Part shown: in pieces, positions 1 through 6,250 of the stretch
Layout: each line of letters begins with the position of its first letter
How positions within the stretch are numbered: position 1 is the stretch's first letter
From: a virus
Taxonomy: Duplodnaviria; Heunggongvirae; Uroviricota; Caudoviricetes
Strand: one strand, 5' to 3'
Virus record (IMG/VR): IMGVR_UViG_2606217107_000014
DNA: 6,289 nt
The notes under the pieces: model-generated
What the model saw: only the letters and a program-made list of their open reading frames with translations
Databases searched by the model: none
What the model was told of the DNA's origin: nothing
Position numbers and translations under genes: made by a program

Positions 1-2
1 AC

Positions 3-758
3 CATATTATCTGGGCGAAGCCGTCCGGACGCTGGAACGGATGCAACAAGGAAAGCCTGCGGGCGTATTTCCCCGCCACAGAGCGCATTCTGTTCGCGGA
101 ACATTATCAGGGGCCGTATCGTCCGAAAGATGCCGGGTATGAGGCGAAGGGCAGGGCACTGAAACAGCATGTGATGGCCCCGCTGATTGCTTACTTTCGT
201 GATGCGCGCGCTGCCCTGGGGATAACGGCAAAACAGATTGCAGATGCCACAGGAAAGAAAAACATGGTGCCGCACTGGTTCAGTGCCAGTCAGTGGCAGC
301 TACCGAACGAAAGCGATTATCTGAAATTACAGTCGCTGTTTGCCCGGGTGGCAGAAGAGAAACATCAGCGCGGGGAACTGGAAAAGCCACACCACCAGCT
401 GGTCAGCACATACAGTGAGCTGAACCGGCAGTATATGGAACTGCTGAGTGAATATAAAAATTTGCGGCGGTATTTCGGTGTGACGGTGCAGGTGCCGTAC
501 ACCGATGTGTGGACGTATAAACCGGTGCAGTACTATCCAGGGAAACATCCGTGCGAAAAACCGGCAGAAATGCTGCAGCAGATAATCAGCGCAAGTAGTC
601 GTCCTGGTGATCTGGTTGCGGATTTCTTCATGGGGTCGGGTTCGACAGTCAAAGCCGCGATGGCGCTGGGGCGTCGTGCTACAGGCGTTGAGCTGGAGAC
701 TGAACGTTTTGAGCAGACGGTCAGGGAAGTTCAGGATTTAGCCAGTCAGAACGGATGA
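3..758 (+). CDS. DNA methyltransferase (N6-adenine/N4-cytosine family), C-terminal part; 5' end lies outside the window
   Basis: Frame is open from position 3 to the TGA at 756-758 with no stop, so the gene starts upstream of the window (the ORF track's GTG at 171 is an internal codon). The translation contains ...KHPCEKPAEMLQQIISASSRPGDLVADFFMGSGST..., i.e. an HPxxKP element followed by an FxGxG AdoMet-binding motif, which I recall as typical of pfam01555-type amino-methyltransferases such as E. coli YhdJ. Catalytic DPPY-type motif would be upstream, not visible. Confidence 0.6.
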   Translation, partial: HIIWAKPSGRWNGCNKESLRAYFPATERILFAEHYQGPYRPKDAGYEAKGRALKQHVMAPLIAYFRDARAALGITAKQIADATGKKNMVPHWFSASQWQLPNESDYLKLQSLFARVAEEKHQRGELEKPHHQLVSTYSELNRQYMELLSEYKNLRRYFGVTVQVPYTDVWTYKPVQYYPGKHPCEKPAEMLQQIISASSRPGDLVADFFMGSGSTVKAAMALGRRATGVELETERFEQTVREVQDLASQNG

Positions 759-759
759 T

Positions 760-789
760 ATTGCAGGATTAGTTACGTACCGTTATTAT
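760..789 (+). promoter_or_regulatory. Candidate sigma70 promoter for the tRNA cluster
   Basis: TTGCAG (760-765), 18-nt spacer, TATTAT (784-789), then a GC-rich stretch (cctgcgccc) just before the first tRNA 5' end at 799. Matched by eye only; spacer is one nt long. Confidence 0.3.
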
Positions 790-798
790 CCTGCGCCC

Positions 799-874
799 GG
801 CCCTTTAGCTCAGTGGTGAGAGCGAGCGACTCATAATCGCCAGGTCGCTGGTTCAAATCCAGCAAGGGCCACCA
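799..874 (+). tRNA. ileZ: tRNA with CAT anticodon (Ile2/lysidine-type or Met); 76 nt with encoded CCA
   Basis: Hand-folded cloverleaf: acceptor 799-805 GGCCCTT pairs with 864-870 AAGGGCC; D-arm AGCTCAGTGGTGAGAGC; anticodon loop cgactCATaatcg; T-arm GGTTCAAATCC; discriminator A then CCA at 872-874. Symbol by analogy to the ileZ-argN-argO cluster of Stx phages (recalled); Ile vs Met cannot be decided from sequence alone. Confidence 0.85.
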
Positions 875-881
875 TCACATA

Positions 882-958
882 CCGCCATTAGCTCATCAGG
901 AAAGAGCGCCAGCCTTCGAAGCTGGTTGCGCGGGGTTCGAGTCCTCGATGGCGGTCCA
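882..958 (+). tRNA. argN: tRNA-Arg (anticodon TCG), 77 nt with encoded CCA
   Basis: Acceptor 882-888 CCGCCAT pairs with ATGGCGG; D stem GCTC/GAGC; anticodon stem CCAGC/GCTGG with loop cTTCGaa (anticodon TCG); T stem CGGGG/CCTCG (one G-U) with TTCGAGT loop; discriminator T then CCA at 956-958. Symbol assigned by order, recalled not verified. Confidence 0.85.
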
Positions 959-971
959 TTATCGGTATTCT

Positions 972-1048
972 GCGTTGTTAGCTCAGCCGGACAGAGCAAT
1001 TGCCTTCTAAGTAATCGGTCACTGGTTCGAATCCAGTACAACGCGCCA
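972..1048 (+). tRNA. argO: tRNA-Arg (anticodon TCT, reads rare AGA/AGG), 77 nt with encoded CCA
   Basis: Acceptor 972-978 GCGTTGT pairs with 1038-1044 ACAACGC; D stem GCTC/GAGC; anticodon stem ATTGC/GTAAT with loop cTTCTaa; T stem ACTGG/CCAGT with TTCGAAT loop; discriminator G then CCA 1046-1048. Symbol assigned by order. Confidence 0.85.
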
Positions 1049-1061
1049 CACTTATTTTCCT

Positions 1062-1083
1062 GGCTCGCTTCGGCGGGCCTTTT
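1062..1083 (+). terminator. Rho-independent terminator after the tRNA cluster
   Basis: GGCTCGC (1062-1068), TTCG tetraloop, GCGGGCC (1073-1079; 7 bp with one G-U), then TTTT (1080-1083). Confidence 0.5.
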
Positions 1084-1211
1084 AATTTGCTGAAAAAGAA
1101 AACATCAGATGGTTAGTCGGGTATCAGTTATCTGGTGAAATTTTTAAATACCTCACAATTCAGGAAGGTGATTATTGTTTTTCTGGTGGGGAATTTGTTA
1201 AAAATCACTCC

Positions 1212-1396
1212 GCATGATGAATCCCCCTAAGCGGTGGGGCGACTGGCAAGGCTCCATTACGATGGTCACAATCCGCAGATTTAGTTTGCCAGGCTGAATC
1301 TACCGGGAGGCACCCGGCATCATGCATAATGTGGAAAATTGGAAATGTATTCAGGCCTCTACGAATTTTAGTAGAGGCTTTTTTTTGAGTAAAAAA
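1212..1396 (+). ncRNA. Candidate structured small RNA, copy A (structured core ~1212-1325 plus its own terminator 1365-1396)
   Basis: Conserved 5' block (cATGaTGAATCCCCCT..GCGGTGGGgCGACTGG) and 3' block (CTGAAtCtaCCGGGAGGCACCCGGCAtCATG) shared with copy B. Closing helix 1212-1219 GCATGATG pairs with 1318-1325 CATCATGC. Internal hairpin CCAT-tacg-ATGG (1254-1265) with a UNCG-type loop. Terminator GCCTCTAC / GTAGAGGC with 8-nt loop followed by T8 (1389-1396). No ORF or convincing promoter. Confidence 0.4.
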
Positions 1397-1400
1397 AGCC

Positions 1401-1427
1401 CGTCTATGGCAGCGGGCAAGTATGCAT
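1401..1427 (-). terminator. Minus-strand rho-independent terminator, back-to-back with the copy-A terminator
   Basis: On the + strand A7 (1401-1407) precedes GCCCG (1408-1412) ... CGGGC (1423-1427); on the minus strand this reads as a hairpin followed by T7. Stem is short (5-6 bp) with a 10-nt loop. Confidence 0.35.
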
Positions 1428-1615
1428 GAGAATACATTTTTTATTATTTGCCTGAAAATAGTACCCTGAGGTTATTGTTGTTTTCAACAGGCTGATTTGT
1501 GTTCTGATCGGGGATGTGACAAGGAACATACGTTCTTATGTGAAAATGTTAAATTCTTCACATTTCAGTGAGTTGAGTGTTGATTTCGTTTTATCTTTTT
1601 TGTTAAAAAAGTATT

Positions 1616-1795
1616 GCATGGTGAATCCCCCTGTGCGGTGGGACGACTGGTGACAACAATTCATCATCCGTGATGACCCAGAAGAGATCGCGGGTTCAGT
1701 GGCACCGGGCTGAACTCACCGGGAGGCACCCGGCACCATGTTCATGGTGATACAGAAATGCGGCTTCAGCCCCTCTCCGGAGGGGCTTTCTTATG
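1616..1795 (+). ncRNA. Candidate structured small RNA, copy B (diverged paralogue of copy A; core ~1616-1741 plus terminator-like hairpin 1768-1794)
   Basis: Same conserved 5' and 3' blocks as copy A. Closing helix 1616-1623 GCATGGTG pairs with 1734-1741 CACCATGT; the A-T pair of copy A is a G-C pair here (compensatory change). Internal hairpin TCATCA-tccg-TGATGA (1651-1666, UNCG loop). Helix GTTCAG (1694-1699) / CTGAAC (1710-1715) matches copy A's GATTTAG/CTGAATC with a U-G to C-G change. 3' hairpin AGCCCCTC-tccg-GAGGGGCT followed by TTCTTAT. Confidence 0.4.
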
Positions 1796-1798
1796 GAC

Positions 1799-1826
1799 AA
1801 AAAAGCCCGCGCTGGGAGACGCGGGC
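1799..1826 (-). terminator. Minus-strand rho-independent terminator, back-to-back with the copy-B hairpin
   Basis: + strand: A6 (1799-1804), GCCCGCG (1805-1811), 8-nt loop, CGCGGGC (1820-1826). On the minus strand this is a 7-bp GC stem followed by a T6 tract. Confidence 0.5.
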
Positions 1827-2019
1827 GGCAAGGAATAAACAATAAAACGTGAAGTAATATTTCAGCTGGCGAATAATACCCCATAGTAATCACTCTGCGC
1901 AACTGCGCGGCCTTTTTCGTATTGCGGGCTGTAGTCTCCCTTCTGCCATTGTCCTGTAACTTCCGGACTTCAGCTCGCTCCTTATCTGACTCACAACATT
2001 ATCCCGACCGGGAGGATTC

Positions 2020-3999
2020 ATGACATTTAAACACTACGATGTGGTCAGGGCGGCGTCGCCGTCAGACCTTGCGGAGCGACTGACACAAAAACTGAAGGAG
2101 GGGTGGCAGCCATTTGGCAGCCCTGTCGCCATCACGCCTTATACCCTGATGCAGGCCATTGCGGCGGAAGGTGATGTCACCACACCTGTGGTGGTGAAGC
2201 CGTCGGATGGAGAAGGCACAGTTATCAGCACCACCAGCGAACCGGAGTATTACTTTGTTGTTGTTCTGGCGGGGCAGTCAAACTCAATGTCTTTTGGGGA
2301 AGGGCTGCCGCTGCCGGAGACATATGACCGTCCGGACCCGCGTATTAAACAGCTGGCGCGTCGCAGTACGGTGACGCCGGGTGGTGCCGCCTGTAAATAT
2401 AACGACATCATTCCGGCAGACCACTGTCTGCATGATGTGCAGGATATGAGTAACCTGAATCATCCTCATGCAGACCTGAGTAAGGGACAGTACGGTTGTG
2501 TGGGGCATGCTCTGCATGTTGCCAAAAAGCTGCTGCCGTTTATGCCTGCGAATGCGGGTATCCTTCTTGTTCCATGTGGCCGTGGCGATTCGGGATTTAC
2601 TGCGGGGGCCGAGGGGGCGTTTAACGAAGCGTCGGGAGCGACCGCAGGCTCGTCCCTGTGGGGGGCGGATAAACCGCTGTATCATGACCTGGTCAGCAGA
2701 ACCCGTGCGGCCCTGAAGAAAAATCCGAAGAACGTGCTGTTATCAGTGATCTGGATGCAGGGAGAAAAAGATGTCAGTTCGGGGAGACATGCAGAACACA
2801 ATGCGCTTTTCCTTGCCATGGTAAATCAGTTCCGTACGGAACTGGCAGATGTGGCAGAGCAGTGTACTGGCGGGACAACGGCCAGCGTCCCGTGGATTTG
2901 CGGTGATACCACGTACTACTGGAAGGAAAGGTATGCAGCGCCGTATGAGGCGGTTTACGGTGGGTATAAAGGCAAAGCTGCGCAGAATATTCACTTTGTG
3001 CCGTTGATGACGGATGAGCATGGTGTGAATGTGCCGACAAACGAGCCGTCAGAAGATCCGGACATTATCCCGGCGGGATACTATGGCGCTGCGTCACGCA
3101 CTGCCAGTAACTGGACGTCAGCCAATCGTAAAACGCACTTCAGTTCATGGGCGCGAAGAGGCCTTGTTTCAGACCGTCTGGCAGGTGCCATTTTGCAGTA
3201 CGCCGGGCGGACATTATCGTTCCTTACCGGGCAGAGCGCACCGCTGTCGGGTGGTACAACTCCTGTCAGTCCGGGGACACCGGATGTTGAGAAACCGCAG
3301 GATGGCGGTGTTGCTGGTACTGGTCATGATGAGGCCGTGAGCAGTACCAGGACGGTGGCTGAATATGATGCGAACAGTGGAAATGGTGTATGGACAGAGC
3401 AGCAGTGGGGGGCTGCCGGTGGCAAAGGCACTGTGACTGATGACGGTGGACGGAAAGCGCTGCGACTGGAAAAACAGCCCGGTAAACTGACGTCCTGGAA
3501 AATGTTCCGTACTGTTGCAGTGGAGGAGGCAAAAAATCTTCTCAGCAAGGGGGGTGAAATTGCCGTACGGTTCAAAATTCCGGATGGAAGCGAACTGGTG
3601 AACGGACAGTTTGTCTTTGGTCTCTACTGGCCGGTGTCGCAGTGGGCGTCAGGCGCGGCAGCAAACAGTATGCTGGCATCATTCTTCCTTCAGACGGATG
3701 CATCAAATCTGAATCTTATGCACCACAAGGGCACGTCGAATGCACAACTGGGCACATTTGGTGCGTTTGACCATAACTGGCATACGGTTGTTTTCCGCTT
3801 TGCGGGAAATAACAGCGAAAGAGTCGTTCCGGTGATTGATGGTGCAGAGCAGACGGCGTTTGACCTTGTGATGTGGACAAATGATGGCTTTACAGCAGAT
3901 ACGCTGACGCTGACAGATATCACGGGGGCAAAAGCGACGTATCCTGTACTGCTTGATACGGTCACTGTCAAAGTGAAAGAAAGCGAAGCAGCGGCATAA
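2020..3999 (+). CDS. nanS-p: Prophage sialate O-acetylesterase (NanS-p-like; N-terminal DUF1737-like region, SASA/SGNH esterase domain, long C-terminal domain of unknown function)
   Basis: 659-aa ORF with GGAGG (2011-2015) 4 nt before the ATG. Contains GQSN (in VLAGQSNSMSFGEG), WMQGEKD and THF motifs that I associate with the SASA family. Position and N-terminus (MTFKHYDVV...) match my recollection of the esterase just downstream of stx in Stx phages (933W L0105). Recalled, not searched. Confidence 0.75.
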   Translation: MTFKHYDVVRAASPSDLAERLTQKLKEGWQPFGSPVAITPYTLMQAIAAEGDVTTPVVVKPSDGEGTVISTTSEPEYYFVVVLAGQSNSMSFGEGLPLPETYDRPDPRIKQLARRSTVTPGGAACKYNDIIPADHCLHDVQDMSNLNHPHADLSKGQYGCVGHALHVAKKLLPFMPANAGILLVPCGRGDSGFTAGAEGAFNEASGATAGSSLWGADKPLYHDLVSRTRAALKKNPKNVLLSVIWMQGEKDVSSGRHAEHNALFLAMVNQFRTELADVAEQCTGGTTASVPWICGDTTYYWKERYAAPYEAVYGGYKGKAAQNIHFVPLMTDEHGVNVPTNEPSEDPDIIPAGYYGAASRTASNWTSANRKTHFSSWARRGLVSDRLAGAILQYAGRTLSFLTGQSAPLSGGTTPVSPGTPDVEKPQDGGVAGTGHDEAVSSTRTVAEYDANSGNGVWTEQQWGAAGGKGTVTDDGGRKALRLEKQPGKLTSWKMFRTVAVEEAKNLLSKGGEIAVRFKIPDGSELVNGQFVFGLYWPVSQWASGAAANSMLASFFLQTDASNLNLMHHKGTSNAQLGTFGAFDHNWHTVVFRFAGNNSERVVPVIDGAEQTAFDLVMWTNDGFTADTLTLTDITGAKATYPVLLDTVTVKVKESEAAA

Positions 4000-4012
4000 C
4001 AGGCGAAAAAAG

Positions 4013-4055
4013 AGCCAGCGCCGGAGGGAAAACATATAAAGGAGCCGGGCGCTGG
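4013..4055. repeat. Long inverted repeat / stem-loop just after the nanS-p stop
   Basis: GCCAGCGCCGG (4013-4023) and CCGGGCGCTGGC (4044-4055) form a ~11-bp GC-rich stem around a ~20-nt loop. No T-tract follows on the + strand; on the minus strand it is followed by TCTTTTTT (complement of A6 at 4006-4011), so it could terminate minus-strand transcription. Confidence 0.4.
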
Positions 4056-4146
4056 CCAAACAAGGCAGCAAATATTGCTTAACTCTTATGTCCGTAGTTT
4101 TGTACCTTTTTTTACTGGATGTTTCAAATAATAACGGTAAGAAATT

Positions 4147-4341
4147 ATGACGTTAGTTCATCAGTTCATGCTGTACTTCTGTACGGCGGTATGCGTGCTG
4201 TATCTTCTTTCGGGTGGGTACAGGGCAGTGCGCGATTTCTGGCGCAGGCAGATTGATAAAAGGGCCGCAGAGAAAATCAGCGCCAGTCAGTCAGCCGGAG
4301 CAAAAACAGAAGCCCCACTCATTCCGGAACAACCTTCTTAA
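4147..4341 (+). CDS. Small membrane protein (64 aa) of the lysis-proximal region, function unknown
   Basis: ORF with one clear hydrophobic segment (FMLYFCTAVCVLYLL) followed by a basic stretch (RAVRDFWRRQIDKR). Weak SD. Position is typical for small late-region proteins in lambdoid prophages. Confidence 0.45.
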   Translation: MTLVHQFMLYFCTAVCVLYLLSGGYRAVRDFWRRQIDKRAAEKISASQSAGAKTEAPLIPEQPS

Positions 4342-4366
4342 TAACCCCTTTCAACGAGAAAATCCT

Positions 4367-4657
4367 ATGTCAGAAATAAAATCGCTGGTCACTGCTGAGG
4401 CAGTGAAGGAAGTCCTGCGCTCTGAAGAAGTCCGGAGCGCACTGAAACAGCAACTTCGGCAGAACCTTGAGGCGCGTCTTGATGCAGAAGTGGATGCCAT
4501 TCTGGATGAATTGCTTGGTGCACAGCCGGAACCATCCCCGGAACTGCTTCCGGAACCACAGGCGGAAGATGTCACCACGGAAAATGGTGATATTCAGCCG
4601 GAGCCACCGGTGACGGATATGACAGACACACAACCCGAACCGGGCACAATGCTGTAA
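4367..4657 (+). CDS. Acidic hypothetical protein (96 aa) with Pro/Glu-rich C-terminal tail
   Basis: I place the start at ATG 4367 (MSEIKSLV...) rather than the ORF-track start at 4214, because 4214-4341 overlaps the upstream ORF in another frame and that extension is low-complexity. The C-terminus carries repeated PEP motifs (PEPS, PEPQ, PEPP, PEPG). Confidence 0.5.
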   Translation: MSEIKSLVTAEAVKEVLRSEEVRSALKQQLRQNLEARLDAEVDAILDELLGAQPEPSPELLPEPQAEDVTTENGDIQPEPPVTDMTDTQPEPGTML

Positions 4658-4668
4658 CGGCGGGGCAG

Positions 4669-4704
4669 GGCCATCAGTAAAGAGCTGGTGGCCCTTTTGT
4701 TGTT
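4669..4704 (+). terminator. Strong rho-independent terminator upstream of the holin gene
   Basis: GGGCCATCAG (4669-4678), 7-nt loop, CTGGTGGCCC (4686-4695; 10 bp with one G-U), then TTTTGTTGTTGT. Confidence 0.6.
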
Positions 4705-4732
4705 GTGAGCTTCCGAGTACGGGAGACGGGGT

Positions 4733-4948
4733 ATGTACCAGATGGAAAAAATCACAACAGGTGTGTCATACACCACGTCAGCGGTGGGAACGGGCTACTG
4801 GTTCCTGCAGTTGCTGGACAGGGTTTCCCCGTCTCAGTGGGCGGCAATAGGCGTGCTGGGGAGTCTGTTGTTTGGGCTGCTGACATATCTGACTAACCTG
4901 TATTTCAAAATCAGAGAGGACCGTCGTAAGGCGGCGCGGGGAGAGTAA
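4733..4948 (+). CDS. S: Class II holin (pinholin, phage-21 S-type) with dual-start motif
   Basis: 71 aa; Met1 and Met4 (MYQMEK...) give the antiholin/holin dual start; a weakly hydrophobic Gly/Ala/Ser-rich first segment ([18 protein letters not shown]) and a second hydrophobic segment ([18 protein letters not shown]); charged C-terminal tail [17 protein letters not shown] lies 8 nt upstream. Matches my recollection of S21. Confidence 0.85.
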
Positions 4949-4952
4949 AGCG

Positions 4953-5483
4953 ATGAAGAAAAAATACGAACTGGTTGTTAAAGGGATAAATAATTACCCG
5001 AATAAGATTACTGTTACTGTGGCACTGGAAATTGGTGGGTATCCGTCACTGTTGTTGCCAGATGTGGCGATTAGTCTTGACCGTACTGAAGATGCCACGC
5101 TGGAGTTTTACGAAGCTGAGGCGAAAAAGCAGGCGAAGCAGTTTTTCATGGATGTTGCTGCCGGGTTATGTGAAGGGAACGAACCGTTGCCGGAAAAGCG
5201 CCCCGTAATTTTAGAGGCGCAGGATGTGTTGATAACCTACAGAGGAAAACTACCGGGAATAATTACTGGTTCTCTGAAGACGCCACCGACGGCATTGCGG
5301 TCAGAAAACGATGATATTGAATCACGCATTGAAAAACTGGAGTGCTATATCGCTGAATTGAAAAAAAGCACCCCAACAAAAAATGAGGTGCTTGCAGCAG
5401 ATGAAATGAAAGAAACTATTCTTGATCGCGCGGCGCATCTAAGCTGCGCTTCACTGTTGAAAGAGCATCTTCAGCAGCCTTGA
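4953..5483 (+). CDS. Hypothetical protein (176 aa) inserted between holin and endolysin; function unknown
   Basis: ATG 4 nt after the S stop codon, with a GGGGAGAG SD lying inside the S 3' end. No transmembrane segment; C-terminal third is charged and likely helical. Sampled 60-nt stretches are visibly more AT-rich than nanS-p or R. Confidence 0.55.
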   Translation: MKKKYELVVKGINNYPNKITVTVALEIGGYPSLLLPDVAISLDRTEDATLEFYEAEAKKQAKQFFMDVAAGLCEGNEPLPEKRPVILEAQDVLITYRGKLPGIITGSLKTPPTALRSENDDIESRIEKLECYIAELKKSTPTKNEVLAADEMKETILDRAAHLSCASLLKEHLQQP

Positions 5484-5628
5484 GGAATCTTTTATCATCA
5501 CGAGCAACTGTCTTTGGTATTTCTTTAATTAGATGTTCCATTTCGGCGATCAGGTAATCTGACACAGCGTTATTTTTACTTAGTGCATCCATTGCTTTGA
5601 TTATCTTTGCGAGGCAGCCATCTCGCAT
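5416..5628 (-). CDS. Possible small helical protein (70 aa from ATG at 5628; ORF track extends to a GTG at 5655)
   Basis: Convergent to the 176-aa ORF and overlapping its last 68 nt. Amino-acid composition looks protein-like (K/E/A/L/D-rich). No clear SD. A perfect palindrome sits immediately upstream of the ATG on the minus strand. Confidence 0.3.
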   Translation of the reverse strand: MRDGCLAKIIKAMDALSKNNAVSDYLIAEMEHLIKEIPKTVARDDKRFLKAAEDALSTVKRSLDAPRDQE

Positions 5629-5639
5629 TGTTGAGTTTA

Positions 5640-5660
5640 CGCCAGTGCCCACCACTGGCG
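5640..5660. repeat. Perfect 8-bp inverted repeat with 5-nt spacer (CGCCAGTG-cccac-CACTGGCG)
   Basis: Read directly from the sequence. Not followed by a T-tract on either strand, so not a classical terminator; candidate operator or RNA hairpin. Confidence 0.5.
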
Positions 5661-5716: not shown

Positions 5717-6250
5717 ATGAGCGCAAAAATCAGATACGGCCTGTCAGCTGCTGTTCTGGCGCTGATTGCTGCAGGCGCGTCTGCTCCTCAGATACTTGAC
5801 CAGTTTCTGGACGAAAAAGAGGGTAACCACACAACGGCATACCGTGATGGTGCAGGTATCTGGACCATCTGCCGTGGTGCCATCATGGTGGATGGCAAAC
5901 CTGTCGTTCCGGGCATGAAGTTGTCGAAGGAAAAATGCGACCAGGTTAACGCCATTGAGCGTGATAAAGCGCTGGCGTGGGTGGAGAAAAACATCAGAGT
6001 GCCGCTGACCGAACCCCAGAAAGCGGGGATCGCGTCATTCTGTCCGTACAACATTGGTCCCGGTAAGTGTTTCCCGTCGACGTTTTATAAACGAATTAAT
6101 GCAGGCGATCGCAGGGGGGCGTGTGAGGCGATTCGCTGGTGGATTAAGGACGGTGGCAGAGACTGCCGTATTCGCTCAAACAACTGTTACGGTCAGGTAT
6201 CCCGTCGCGACCAGGAGAGTGCGCTGGCGTGCTGGGGAATTGACAGATAA
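5717..6250 (+). CDS. R: SAR endolysin (T4-lysozyme-like muramidase with N-terminal signal-arrest-release segment)
   Basis: 177 aa; N-terminal Gly/Ala-rich weakly hydrophobic segment (GLSAAVLALIAAGASAP) and E35-D44-T50 with the 9/6 spacing of the T4 lysozyme catalytic triad. Same length as the lysozymes I recall from Qin (rrrQ) and 933W. No SD within 12 nt of the ATG. Confidence 0.85.
   Translation: MSAKIRYGLSAAVLALIAAGASAPQILDQFLDEKEGNHTTAYRDGAGIWTICRGAIMVDGKPVVPGMKLSKEKCDQVNAIERDKALAWVEKNIRVPLTEPQKAGIASFCPYNIGPGKCFPSTFYKRINAGDRRGACEAIRWWIKDGGRDCRIRSNNCYGQVSRRDQESALACWGIDR

Follow-up and report, generated by a model that had tools for sequence, protein, structure and literature searches.

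The window analysed here, a stretch of 6,289 nucleotides taken at its full length, covers the late genes of an E. coli prophage that has the organization of a Shiga-toxin phage. We think it very probable that the interval between argO and the NanS-p esterase is the moron slot of an stx-negative lambdoid prophage with an Stx2-type late region, in which an extra sRNA pair (module 1) lies instead of Pstx-stxAB and is followed by a second module (module 2) that Stx2a phages share. The slot contains two convergent sRNA pairs ("dyads"; Tree et al. 2014), four sRNA genes in all, in the following setting.

1-758, plus strand (listed open reading frame 171-758): 3′ part of a DNA methyltransferase gene that begins left of the window (Pfam N6_N4_Mtase, E = 8e-25).
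799-1048, plus strand: tRNA trio ileZ (CAT, 799-874), argN (TCG, 882-958) and argO (Arg-TCT, 972-1048), from ARAGORN and Rfam tRNA.
1062-1083, plus strand: intrinsic terminator after argO, GGCTCGCTTCGGCGGGCC followed by TTTT (terminator scan).
1084-1598, no single strand: module 1, the sRNA pair at the Pstx-stxA-stxB position (BLAST breakpoints; no stx similarity).
1175-1204, plus strand: putative sigma-70 promoter of STnc100 copy 1, TTGTTT, 18 nt, extended -10 TGT-TAAAAA (alignment).
1212-1388, plus strand: STnc100-family sRNA, copy 1, with its terminator at 1353-1386 (Rfam RF02076 match 1182-1390, 122.1 bits, E = 3e-27).
1391-1450, minus strand: candidate AsxR/AgvB-type anti-sRNA, convergent with copy 1, terminator at about 1391-1416 (sub-threshold Rfam match, conserved core, fold).
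1458-1487, minus strand: promoter-like TTGAAA-18-TACTAT, placed to start the anti-sRNA near 1450 (promoter scan, 9/12 matches).
1580-1609, plus strand: putative promoter of STnc100 copy 2, TTGATT, 18 nt, TGT-TAAAAA (same reasoning as for copy 1).
1617-1796, plus strand: STnc100-family sRNA, copy 2, with its terminator at 1768-1793 (Rfam match 1586-1798, 140.3 bits, E = 7e-32).
1799-1979, minus strand: sRNA locus of the EcOnc08/21/42 / EPEC E2348C_1409.E2348C_1408.IGR type, convergent with copy 2 (homology).
1895-1915, plus strand: terminator-like hairpin and T-run in the esterase leader (terminator scan), kept in 933W, EPEC PP6 and PhiR5_1.
2020-3999, plus strand: NanS-p-type sialate O-acetylesterase of 659 aa, DUF1737 + SASA + DUF6645 (Pfam).

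The window is collinear with the Stx2 phages Stx2_95, Stx2a_WGPS2, 933W and Sakai Sp5 in the order methylase, ileZ-argN-argO, gap, esterase, DUF1378, DUF826, holin, DUF1327 and lysozyme. Its methylase matches the 1059-bp methylase genes of Stx2a_WGPS2, Stx2_95 and strain DETEC-S792, all directly upstream of tRNAs; the tRNA trio has 93-94% identity with the one that precedes stx2A in Stx2_95, WGPS2, 933W and Sp5; the homologue of the post-argO hairpin carries a terminator annotation in 933W (L005 4386-4409); and the esterase is collinear with the esterase downstream of stx in every Stx phage examined. A preliminary description of this DNA had recognized the methylase, the three tRNAs and the NanS-p esterase as the surroundings of stxAB in Stx phages, and the alignments bear this out, being syntenic and having sharp breakpoints at window positions 1083 and 1599. 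On the left, window 1-1083 corresponds to Stx2_95 1501-2585 at 94% identity, and the match ends at the T-run of the post-argO terminator; on the right, window 1599-3066 corresponds to Stx2_95 3968-5444. Stx2A/B occupy 2641-3881 in that phage and homology to the window restarts 86 nt after stxB, so that by pairwise BLAST the 515 bp of 1084-1598 stand in place of 1382 bp of Stx2_95 (Pstx-stxA-stxB plus the 86 nt). The left breakpoint is the same, 1083, against WGPS2, 933W and Sp5, and in each of them homology restarts at 1599. Only module 1 is in the toxin position, since Stx2a phages have module 2 (1599-2019) as well, as part of the backbone that follows stxB.

No trace of the toxin genes accompanies this synteny. 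Searched by tblastn with StxA and StxB of an Stx2a phage (word size 2, no filter; positive control E = 0 and 2e-59), the window returned nothing better than E = 0.15 anywhere and only E > 4 inside 1084-2019, and blastn at word size 7 found no stx DNA in the window. The earlier statement that no A-subunit or B-subunit reading frame lies between argO and nanS-p is therefore correct, and a degraded stx pseudogene was rejected because both searches came back empty. Flanking late-region synteny is present and stxA/stxB are absent from the argO-esterase interval, which makes the locus an stx-negative relative, not an Stx phage; with synteny to stx loci found and degraded stx absent, the comparison with toxin loci holds. 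The view that the cargo slot of a toxin-less relative holds non-coding RNA survives as to the sRNAs and the absence of stx, but the stxAB position is filled by module 1 only, and the RNA present comprises four genes in two convergent pairs, not two RNAs.

The gap from the end of argO (1048) to the start of the esterase (2020) is exactly window 1049-2019, 971 bp. Six open reading frames of at least 40 aa (40-68 aa) occur between these genes, short and all overlapping RNA elements, as had been noted before. Five have no Pfam match even at E ≤ 1, and the sixth has two marginal Pfam matches only (E about 0.09, 13 bits against cut-offs of 25-29); PGAP annotated zero CDS in a 99.9%-identical stretch of strain DETEC-S792. 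A coding slot was rejected on these grounds, there being no above-threshold Pfam family and no CDS in the near-identical annotated locus. That the interval nonetheless encodes at least one small protein, with the RNA matches incidental, seems to us scarcely credible: the six reading frames themselves, the pseudo fragments that PGAP labels "hypothetical protein" where STnc100 lies in two further genomes, and the ribosome footprints reported on some EDL933 STnc100 copies (PMC5331693) speak for it, but the frames overlap helices with compensatory substitutions and the RNA matches have E values of 1e-27 to 1e-32.

The RNA modules are real and well outside what chance would produce. Both STnc100 matches are full-length, covering positions 1-206 of RF02076, and their scores of 122 and 140 bits exceed the gathering score of the family (47 bits). 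Each copy has the fold of the family, in which a long-range helix encloses internal hairpins and is followed by a linker and an intrinsic terminator. Each also lies where the family is found, in the late region of a lambdoid prophage with PR′ or a moron CDS on one side and the esterase/lysis genes on the other. In an RNAalifold analysis of 12 STnc100 copies, 8 of the 35 consensus pairs showed compensatory changes and almost none was broken; between the two window copies, G-C and A-U pairs are exchanged in the closing helix and in the third hairpin. Because these copies are only 66% identical, with compensatory changes in their helices, a recent tandem duplication was rejected. A loop-loop pseudoknot of the two invariant hairpins was dropped, since one loop varies in the alignment without compensation, as was a possible likeness to the 6S RNA of lambda PR′-tR′, with which no shared sequence was seen; the present elements lie downstream of tRNAs, not at PR′. 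Identity with PasD was rejected as well: the seed UGUGAG and its context are absent from the window copies and found only in EPEC PP2, and PasD2 scores 35 bits against a profile of canonical copies.

We infer the STnc100 promoters from conserved blocks, in which TTG and TTTGTTAAAA are invariant across four aligned copies, and from the RIL-seq fragments of EPEC PasD2, which start at the homologous GCAUGGUG. They would be weak by consensus (-35 TTGTTT and TTGATT), and the scan tool did not pick them up. Copy 2 is the counterpart of the STnc100 that lies 75 nt downstream of stx2B in Stx2 phages (EcOnc27/sRNA103; PMC12711010, PMC12370729) and has 87% identity with that of Stx2_95; in WGPS2, 933W and Sp5, STnc100 comes immediately after stxB, and in the latter two it is convergent with AsxR. 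EcOnc27 overlaps this STnc100 downstream of stx2B (PMC12711010). Homologues have been detected by Hfq-CRAC and Northern blots (Sakai, EDL933) and, for PasD, by RIL-seq; in EDL933 the STnc100 copies are transcribed, and one of them (STnc100_4) was seen on a Northern blot (PMC5331693). PasD/STnc100 upstream of the esterase has also been reported (bioRxiv 10.64898/2026.05.13.724894), and at least eight Sakai prophages carry convergent Hfq-binding sRNA dyads between PR′ and the lysis genes (PMC4104026, PMC7873438).

The structural conservation invites another reading, one we regard as distinctly unlikely, in which STnc100 works chiefly in cis, at the level of the late transcript or of DNA, with trans sRNA activity as a secondary role. 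Possible cis roles include terminator/insulator arrays that silence the lysis genes in the lysogen, processing or stabilizing of the late mRNA, and portable homology for cassette exchange. STnc100 is always in late-transcript orientation between PR′ and the lysis genes, its structured core with two invariant hairpins is conserved far better than the presumed seed linker, and the terminator scan (6 found in all, 1.5 expected) places four plus-strand terminators in the slot; the recombinant-like STnc100 of phage PhiR5_1 and the methylase remnant between the copies of locus L006 point the same way. Against this, each copy has its own conserved promoter-like block, and discrete Hfq-bound RNAs of the family with many trans partners have been documented (EcOnc27/sRNA103, PasD1/2; STnc100_4 by Northern blot). 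Cis and trans roles are, moreover, compatible with each other.

The minus-strand partner in module 1 is a candidate anti-sRNA. Full-length Rfam matches at 1391/1393-1450 score 20.7 bits for AsxR (RF02703) and 15.9 bits for AgvB (RF02702), below the gathering scores of 63 and 56 and well short of the 88 bits of genuine AsxR in 933W/Sp5; no AsxR or AgvB reaches the gathering score in the window, nor does any in Stx2a_WGPS2. The AsxR match has an E-value of 0.47 multiplied over 4227 Rfam families, or, by calculation, about 1e-4 for one family predicted beforehand. Several further features fit the assignment. AsxR and AgvB have in common the core GUAU(U)CUCAUGCA..UUGCCCG..CGGGCUUUUU, and the conserved core CTCATGCA..TTGCCCG..CGGGCTTTTT is present in the candidate, which folds with a terminator hairpin. 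Prophage anti-sRNAs are 51-60 nt long; their first 14-18 nt vary, and about 42 nt on the 3′ side, terminator included, are conserved (Tree et al. 2014). The candidate has this layout and is 60 nt long, and the promoter-like site at 1458-1487 agrees in position with the 5′ end of the AsxR model match. STnc100 copy 1 and the candidate finish back to back, the former at about 1388-1390 and the latter at 1391 on the opposite strand, an arrangement also found in 933W (STnc100 5778-5983, AsxR 5985-6037 on the minus strand). Identity to 933W AsxR is 70.5%, with only 10/16 matches in the 5′ 16 nt; this 5′ region differs from those of both AsxR (target FnrS) and AgvB (target GcvB).

In module 2 the minus-strand locus is identical at 170/181 positions (93.9%) to an Hfq-bound locus of the EPEC prophage PP6 (NC_011601 1444797-1444978, minus strand). 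It has a strong terminator at 1805-1826 and, at 1827-1833, a seed-like CCUUGCC complementary to the RIL-seq target motif GGCAAGG/GGCAGGG. A TATTAT -10 element suggests a mature RNA of perhaps no more than about 70 nt (1799 to about 1870), as against the 182 nt of the EPEC annotation. The EcOnc08/21/42 name follows a note in Table S6 of PMC8550237, not an alignment of EcOnc sequences.

The arrangement is rare. Among 5426 complete E. coli genomes the exact argO-module 1 junction occurs in 11, as against 599 with an argO-stx2A junction; the exact 971-bp slot is carried by 6 genomes only, and the best whole-window match is 95.2% identical over 96%. Cassettes at the same site elsewhere consist of a TolA-like CDS, a DUF3927 CDS, or two or three STnc100 copies. 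These counts bear on whether the locus might be a decayed Stx phage, in which stxAB was once present and then deleted, leaving the RNA-only slot as a scar. We see a real though minor chance of this. The preponderance of the stx2A junction would fit, as would a backbone 94% (left) and 80-92% (right) identical to that of Stx2a phages, and repeated loss of stx after integration has been proposed in the Pas preprint (bioRxiv 10.64898/2026.05.13.724894). The window, however, retains zero stx-derived sequence, and the 515 bp are not a scar but an entire sRNA pair, in which each strand has a promoter-like site and a terminator. A cassette swap fits better than a deletion because both breakpoints coincide with module boundaries, one just past the argO terminator and the other within the STnc100 promoter. 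A swap that removed stx is possible, and would be indistinguishable from one in which stx was never involved.

Returning to the moron slot with an sRNA pair in the toxin position, we suggest how it might work, drawing on homologues for expression, Hfq binding, targets and read-through. The plus-strand member of each pair would be an STnc100 RNA of about 180 nt with a conserved multi-helix 5′ core and an intrinsic terminator, and its variable single-stranded linker is probably the seed; the minus-strand member would be a short RNA ending back to back with it, of the AsxR/AgvB type in module 1 and the EcOnc08/21/42 type in module 2. In the lysogen, each slot RNA would have its own sigma-70 promoter, associate with Hfq and work in trans on transcripts of the host and of islands, with the anti-sRNA type pairing with and inactivating a core sRNA. 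After induction, RNA polymerase modified by Q and arriving from PR′, to the left of the window, would pass all four plus-strand terminators in the slot, allowing expression of the esterase and lysis genes; because PR′ and Q lie outside the window, this read-through is taken from related records. Module 1 and stxAB would be alternative cassettes, probably swapped, in one direction or the other, through recombination between conserved sequences on both sides, namely the tRNAs with the terminator to the left and STnc100 with the esterase to the right.

A more general scheme can be imagined, although we consider it a long shot. Convergent sRNA pairs would be modular, recombination-prone cassettes in which the STnc100 core serves as a scaffold or as a cis element on the Q-antiterminated late transcript, and also as portable homology for swapping toxin, moron or RNA genes at one site; the rare argO-dyad-dyad arrangement would be an allelic alternative to stx2AB, and the new 5′ end of the anti-sRNA would direct it to a core sRNA other than the targets of AsxR and AgvB.

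What the locus provides is a base-level view of the stx2 cassette breakpoints: the left one directly follows the argO terminator, and the right one falls in the STnc100 promoter. It also shows that an sRNA pair is able to occupy the place of that cassette. Both points should help in typing relatives of Stx phages that lack stx and in modelling stx gain and loss. The locus further supplies one more allele of the known prophage sRNA dyads, including an anti-sRNA variant that would have a new targeting end. The layout and the RNA families have already been described, and the current understanding of these phages is unchanged; the finding is an ordinary one, because all of the parts belong to known kinds.

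The closest known systems are the Stx2a phages with a methylase backbone (Stx2_95, LC567838; Stx2a_WGPS2, NC_049941), which share with the window the order Q ... methylase, ileZ-argN-argO, terminator, slot, STnc100, esterase, DUF1378, DUF826, holin, DUF1327/YdfR and lysozyme. Module 2 and the esterase leader are about 91% identical to those of Stx2_95, but the window esterase is only 70-80% identical to those of the two phages, and WGPS2 has a longer, unrelated spacer ahead of its esterase. The stx2 locus of 933W and Sakai Sp5, with its EcOnc27-AsxR dyad (Tree et al. 2014), resembles the window in the tRNA trio, the post-argO terminator and the left breakpoint, and its convergent pair of STnc100 (plus strand) and anti-sRNA (minus strand) right before the esterase leader has the same design as module 1. 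Unlike the window, 933W lacks a methylase ahead of the tRNAs, where just a remnant of some 110 bp is left, contains stxAB and has one dyad rather than two; its STnc100 shows 67% and 74% identity to those of the window. The stx-negative lambdoid prophages PP2 (pasD2-esterase-pasA) and PP6 of EPEC E2348/69 have sRNA genes directly upstream of a SASA esterase, as in the window, although the PP2 slot holds a DUF3927 CDS and the PP6 slot an IS element. PasD2 resembles the window copies in the layout of the STnc100 promoter, in the GCAUGGUGAAUCC start and in overall architecture, yet the window copies, unlike PasD, are canonical STnc100. Two or three tandem STnc100 copies are found in NCTC9112, SW070917 and S19-651; unlike the window, S19-651 has a TolA-like CDS and a methylase remnant, and such a remnant, as in the inter-module spacer of S19-651, was looked for in the window and is absent. 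Finally, the non-Stx phage PhiR5_1 (PV340545) shares the esterase-lysis backbone, at 93% over window 1541-5480, but has a single STnc100 directly after Q, with neither methylase nor tRNAs; that STnc100 looks like a recombinant of the two window copies.

The interval 1049-2019 is exactly the gap between the end of argO and the start of the esterase, as follows from the coordinates of the two genes.

Genes of the window (tRNAs from ARAGORN, protein families from Pfam)
Upstream of the tRNAs: N6/N4 DNA methylase gene, 3′ part
799-874: tRNA with anticodon CAT, ileZ in related records
882-958: tRNA Arg-TCG
972-1048: tRNA Arg-TCT (argO)
2020-3999: NanS-p-type esterase of 659 aa, DUF1737+SASA+DUF6645
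3′ of the esterase, in order: DUF1378, DUF826, P21-type holin, DUF1327 protein, lysozyme

The tRNA at 799-874 is read as tRNA-Met (CAT) by ARAGORN and in the Stx2_95 record, and as ileZ, a tRNA-Ile, in RefSeq, 933W, and Sakai; the tRNA-Ile reading presupposes a lysidine-modified CAT anticodon. Farther downstream, in window 4953-5655, the DUF1327 ORF is 176 aa long, with the Pfam domain spanning only its first 112 residues; it is overlapped by a minus-strand ORF of 79 aa (5416-5655) that has no Pfam family, and nothing in the compared phages matches window 5481-5640. The homologous YdfR gene of E. coli DETEC-S792 is marked as truncated by PGAP.

The preliminary description had found no A- or B-subunit ORF between argO and nanS-p, and homology searches bear this out. 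With StxA and StxB of an Stx2a phage as queries, tblastn gave a best E value of 0.15 over the whole window and only values above 4 within the gap; on the control phage, the same queries gave E = 0 and 2e-59. A sensitive blastn search for stx DNA found nothing in the window. The window thus contains neither a toxin gene nor a recognizable remnant of one. The ORFs of the gap are, as had been claimed, short (six, of 40-68 aa); Pfam gives nothing for five of them even at E ≤ 1, and the two marginal matches of the remaining one fall far under threshold. A 99.9%-identical stretch in DETEC-S792 carries no annotated CDS.

The resemblance of the flanks to the surroundings of stxAB holds on alignment. 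With the whole window as query, 396 phage records give matches, mostly named Stx-converting phages. The Stx2a phage Stx2_95 shares the methylase backbone of the window: window 1-1083 corresponds to positions 1501-2585 of its locus (94%) and window 1599-3066 to positions 3968-5444, with Stx2A/B at 2641-3881. The alignments with Stx2a_WGPS2, 933W, and Sakai Sp5 likewise break at 1083 and resume at 1599, and the hairpin ending at the left breakpoint is annotated, in the comparison with 933W and Sp5, as the post-argO terminator. The window is therefore syntenic with stx loci, and 515 bp of it (1084-1598) stand in the stx2 position, as against 1382 bp in an Stx2 phage (the stx2 promoter, stxA, stxB, and 86 further bases). 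In 933W and Sp5, unlike in the window, the tRNAs are not preceded by a methylase gene. These two keep approximately 110 bp of the methylase 3′ end just 5′ of the annotated tRNA promoter (window 648-758, 933W locus 3970-4080).

It had been proposed that the cargo slot holds non-coding RNA. Non-coding RNA genes are indeed predicted throughout the gap, but they are not all cargo: window 1599-2019 is matched in a single piece, at approximately 91%, in Stx2a phages such as Stx2_95, and this part, module 2, is therefore backbone common to toxin phages. The toxin position itself is taken by module 1 (1084-1598) only. The toxin-less observation is thus confirmed, and its interpretation is supported in this refined form. 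The clean module boundaries favor a cassette swap over a deletion. Among 5426 complete E. coli genomes, 6 contain the exact 971-bp slot, and 11 have the junction of argO with the convergent sRNA pair, or dyad, versus 599 with an argO-stx2A junction; the whole slot was not found in any sequenced phage.

Predicted small RNA genes of the slot
1182-1390 (+): STnc100 copy 1, full-length Rfam match, 122 bits
1391-1450 (-): AsxR/AgvB-type candidate, full-length but sub-threshold Rfam matches to AsxR (20.7 bits) and AgvB (15.9 bits)
1586-1798 (+): STnc100 copy 2, full-length Rfam match, 140 bits
1799-1979 (-): EcOnc08/21/42-type locus, 93.9% identical to EPEC locus E2348C_1409.E2348C_1408.IGR

The 971 bp are filled by these four predicted genes, arranged as two convergent pairs, together with the terminator of argO and, in the leader of the esterase, a terminator-like hairpin. 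STnc100 also lies approximately 75 nt 3′ of stxB in WGPS2, 933W, Sp5, and Stx2_95, convergent in 933W and Sp5 with AsxR on the opposite strand, an arrangement that Tree et al. 2014 described as a dyad. EcOnc27/sRNA103, an experimentally detected Hfq-binding RNA, overlaps the STnc100 prediction 3′ of stx2B (PMC12711010). At 66% identity, the two copies in the window are diverged paralogues rather than products of a fresh duplication. Aligning 12 copies from seven loci brings out a closing helix of 7 bp, two hairpins that are invariant and a hairpin region that varies, a further hairpin of 8 bp carrying several compensatory changes, a single-stranded linker that is variable, and a terminator; compensatory changes affect 8 of 35 pairs, and there are almost no broken pairs. 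The linker has at least five sequence types, and in EPEC PasD, an STnc100 relative, the experimentally derived seed UGUGAG sits in the corresponding linker. Each copy is preceded by an invariant TTG, 18 nt, TGTTAAAAA, and then 7 nt to GCATG(A/G)TG, at whose G the RIL-seq fragments of EPEC PasD2 begin. From the conserved block and these fragment starts we infer a putative extended -10 promoter upstream of the copies, and that the first ~30 positions of the Rfam model (window 1175-1211 and 1580-1616) are promoter DNA and seemingly not RNA.

The minus-strand candidate of module 1 keeps the conserved core CTCATGCA..TTGCCCG..CGGGCTTTTT, is 70.5% identical to 933W AsxR, and has a promoter-like TTGAAA-18-TACTAT site positioned for a start near 1450; in its 5′ targeting part, no more than 10 of the 16 positions agree with AsxR. 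The EPEC counterpart of the module 2 locus comes from RIL-seq work as an Hfq-bound sRNA candidate, for which the authors noted EcOnc08/21/42 as EHEC homologues; in the window this locus ends in a strong terminator and retains CCUUGCC, to which the target motif that was reported, GGCAAGG, is complementary. In WGPS2 (L001 5383-6246), STnc100 follows stxB and an unrelated spacer of approximately 580 bp precedes the esterase; no AsxR/AgvB-type partner was detected there, so not every Stx2a phage carries the dyad.

Beyond the slot, at approximately 4005-4060 (-), between the esterase stop (3999) and the DUF1378 start (4147), lies a hairpin, GCCAGCGCC..GGCGCTGGC, with a T-run, missed by the terminator scan because its loop is long. 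It is similar to the 3′ ends of EPEC PasA and of a second element directly after the esterase stop of PP2, an EPEC prophage locus with pasD2, esterase, and pasA. This hairpin may belong to an sRNA of the PasA/PasC type, lying where such sRNAs have been published.

Tandem STnc100 arrays occur elsewhere, with two copies in NCTC9112 and SW070917 and three in S19-651. A TolA-like CDS is usually present in backbones related to the window, and the S19-651 copies lie 3′ of one (L006 3549-4688). Between the first two is a 116-bp methylase 3′-end remnant, 88% identical to window 603-718, which PGAP calls a methyltransferase pseudogene; it has the look of a scar left by module shuffling. PhiR5_1 resembles a recombinant in which the upstream part of copy 1 is joined to the body of copy 2; this form and the S19-651 fragment together indicate module shuffling by recombination. 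In copy 2 of NCTC9112 (L008 4048-4284), the variable hairpin is that of window copy 2 and the linker that of PhiR5_1, and this copy faces an anti-sRNA core nearer to AsxR. Such re-assorted parts suggest recombination inside the RNA genes.

By analogy with their homologues, the slot RNAs would be made in the lysogen, as trans-acting sRNAs dependent on Hfq and as a sponge for another sRNA; after induction, Q-modified polymerase would pass through the slot terminators. Stx-negative lambdoid prophages with the same late region have already been published, as have sRNA dyads at the moron site, reported for at least eight of the Sakai prophages, where they lie between PR′ and the lysis genes (Tree et al. 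2014; PMC4104026, PMC7873438), and STnc100/PasD genes 5′ of the esterase. To these the window adds, on sequence comparison, a rare allele with a second dyad exactly in the stx2AB position, and a candidate anti-sRNA variant whose 5′ end is new.
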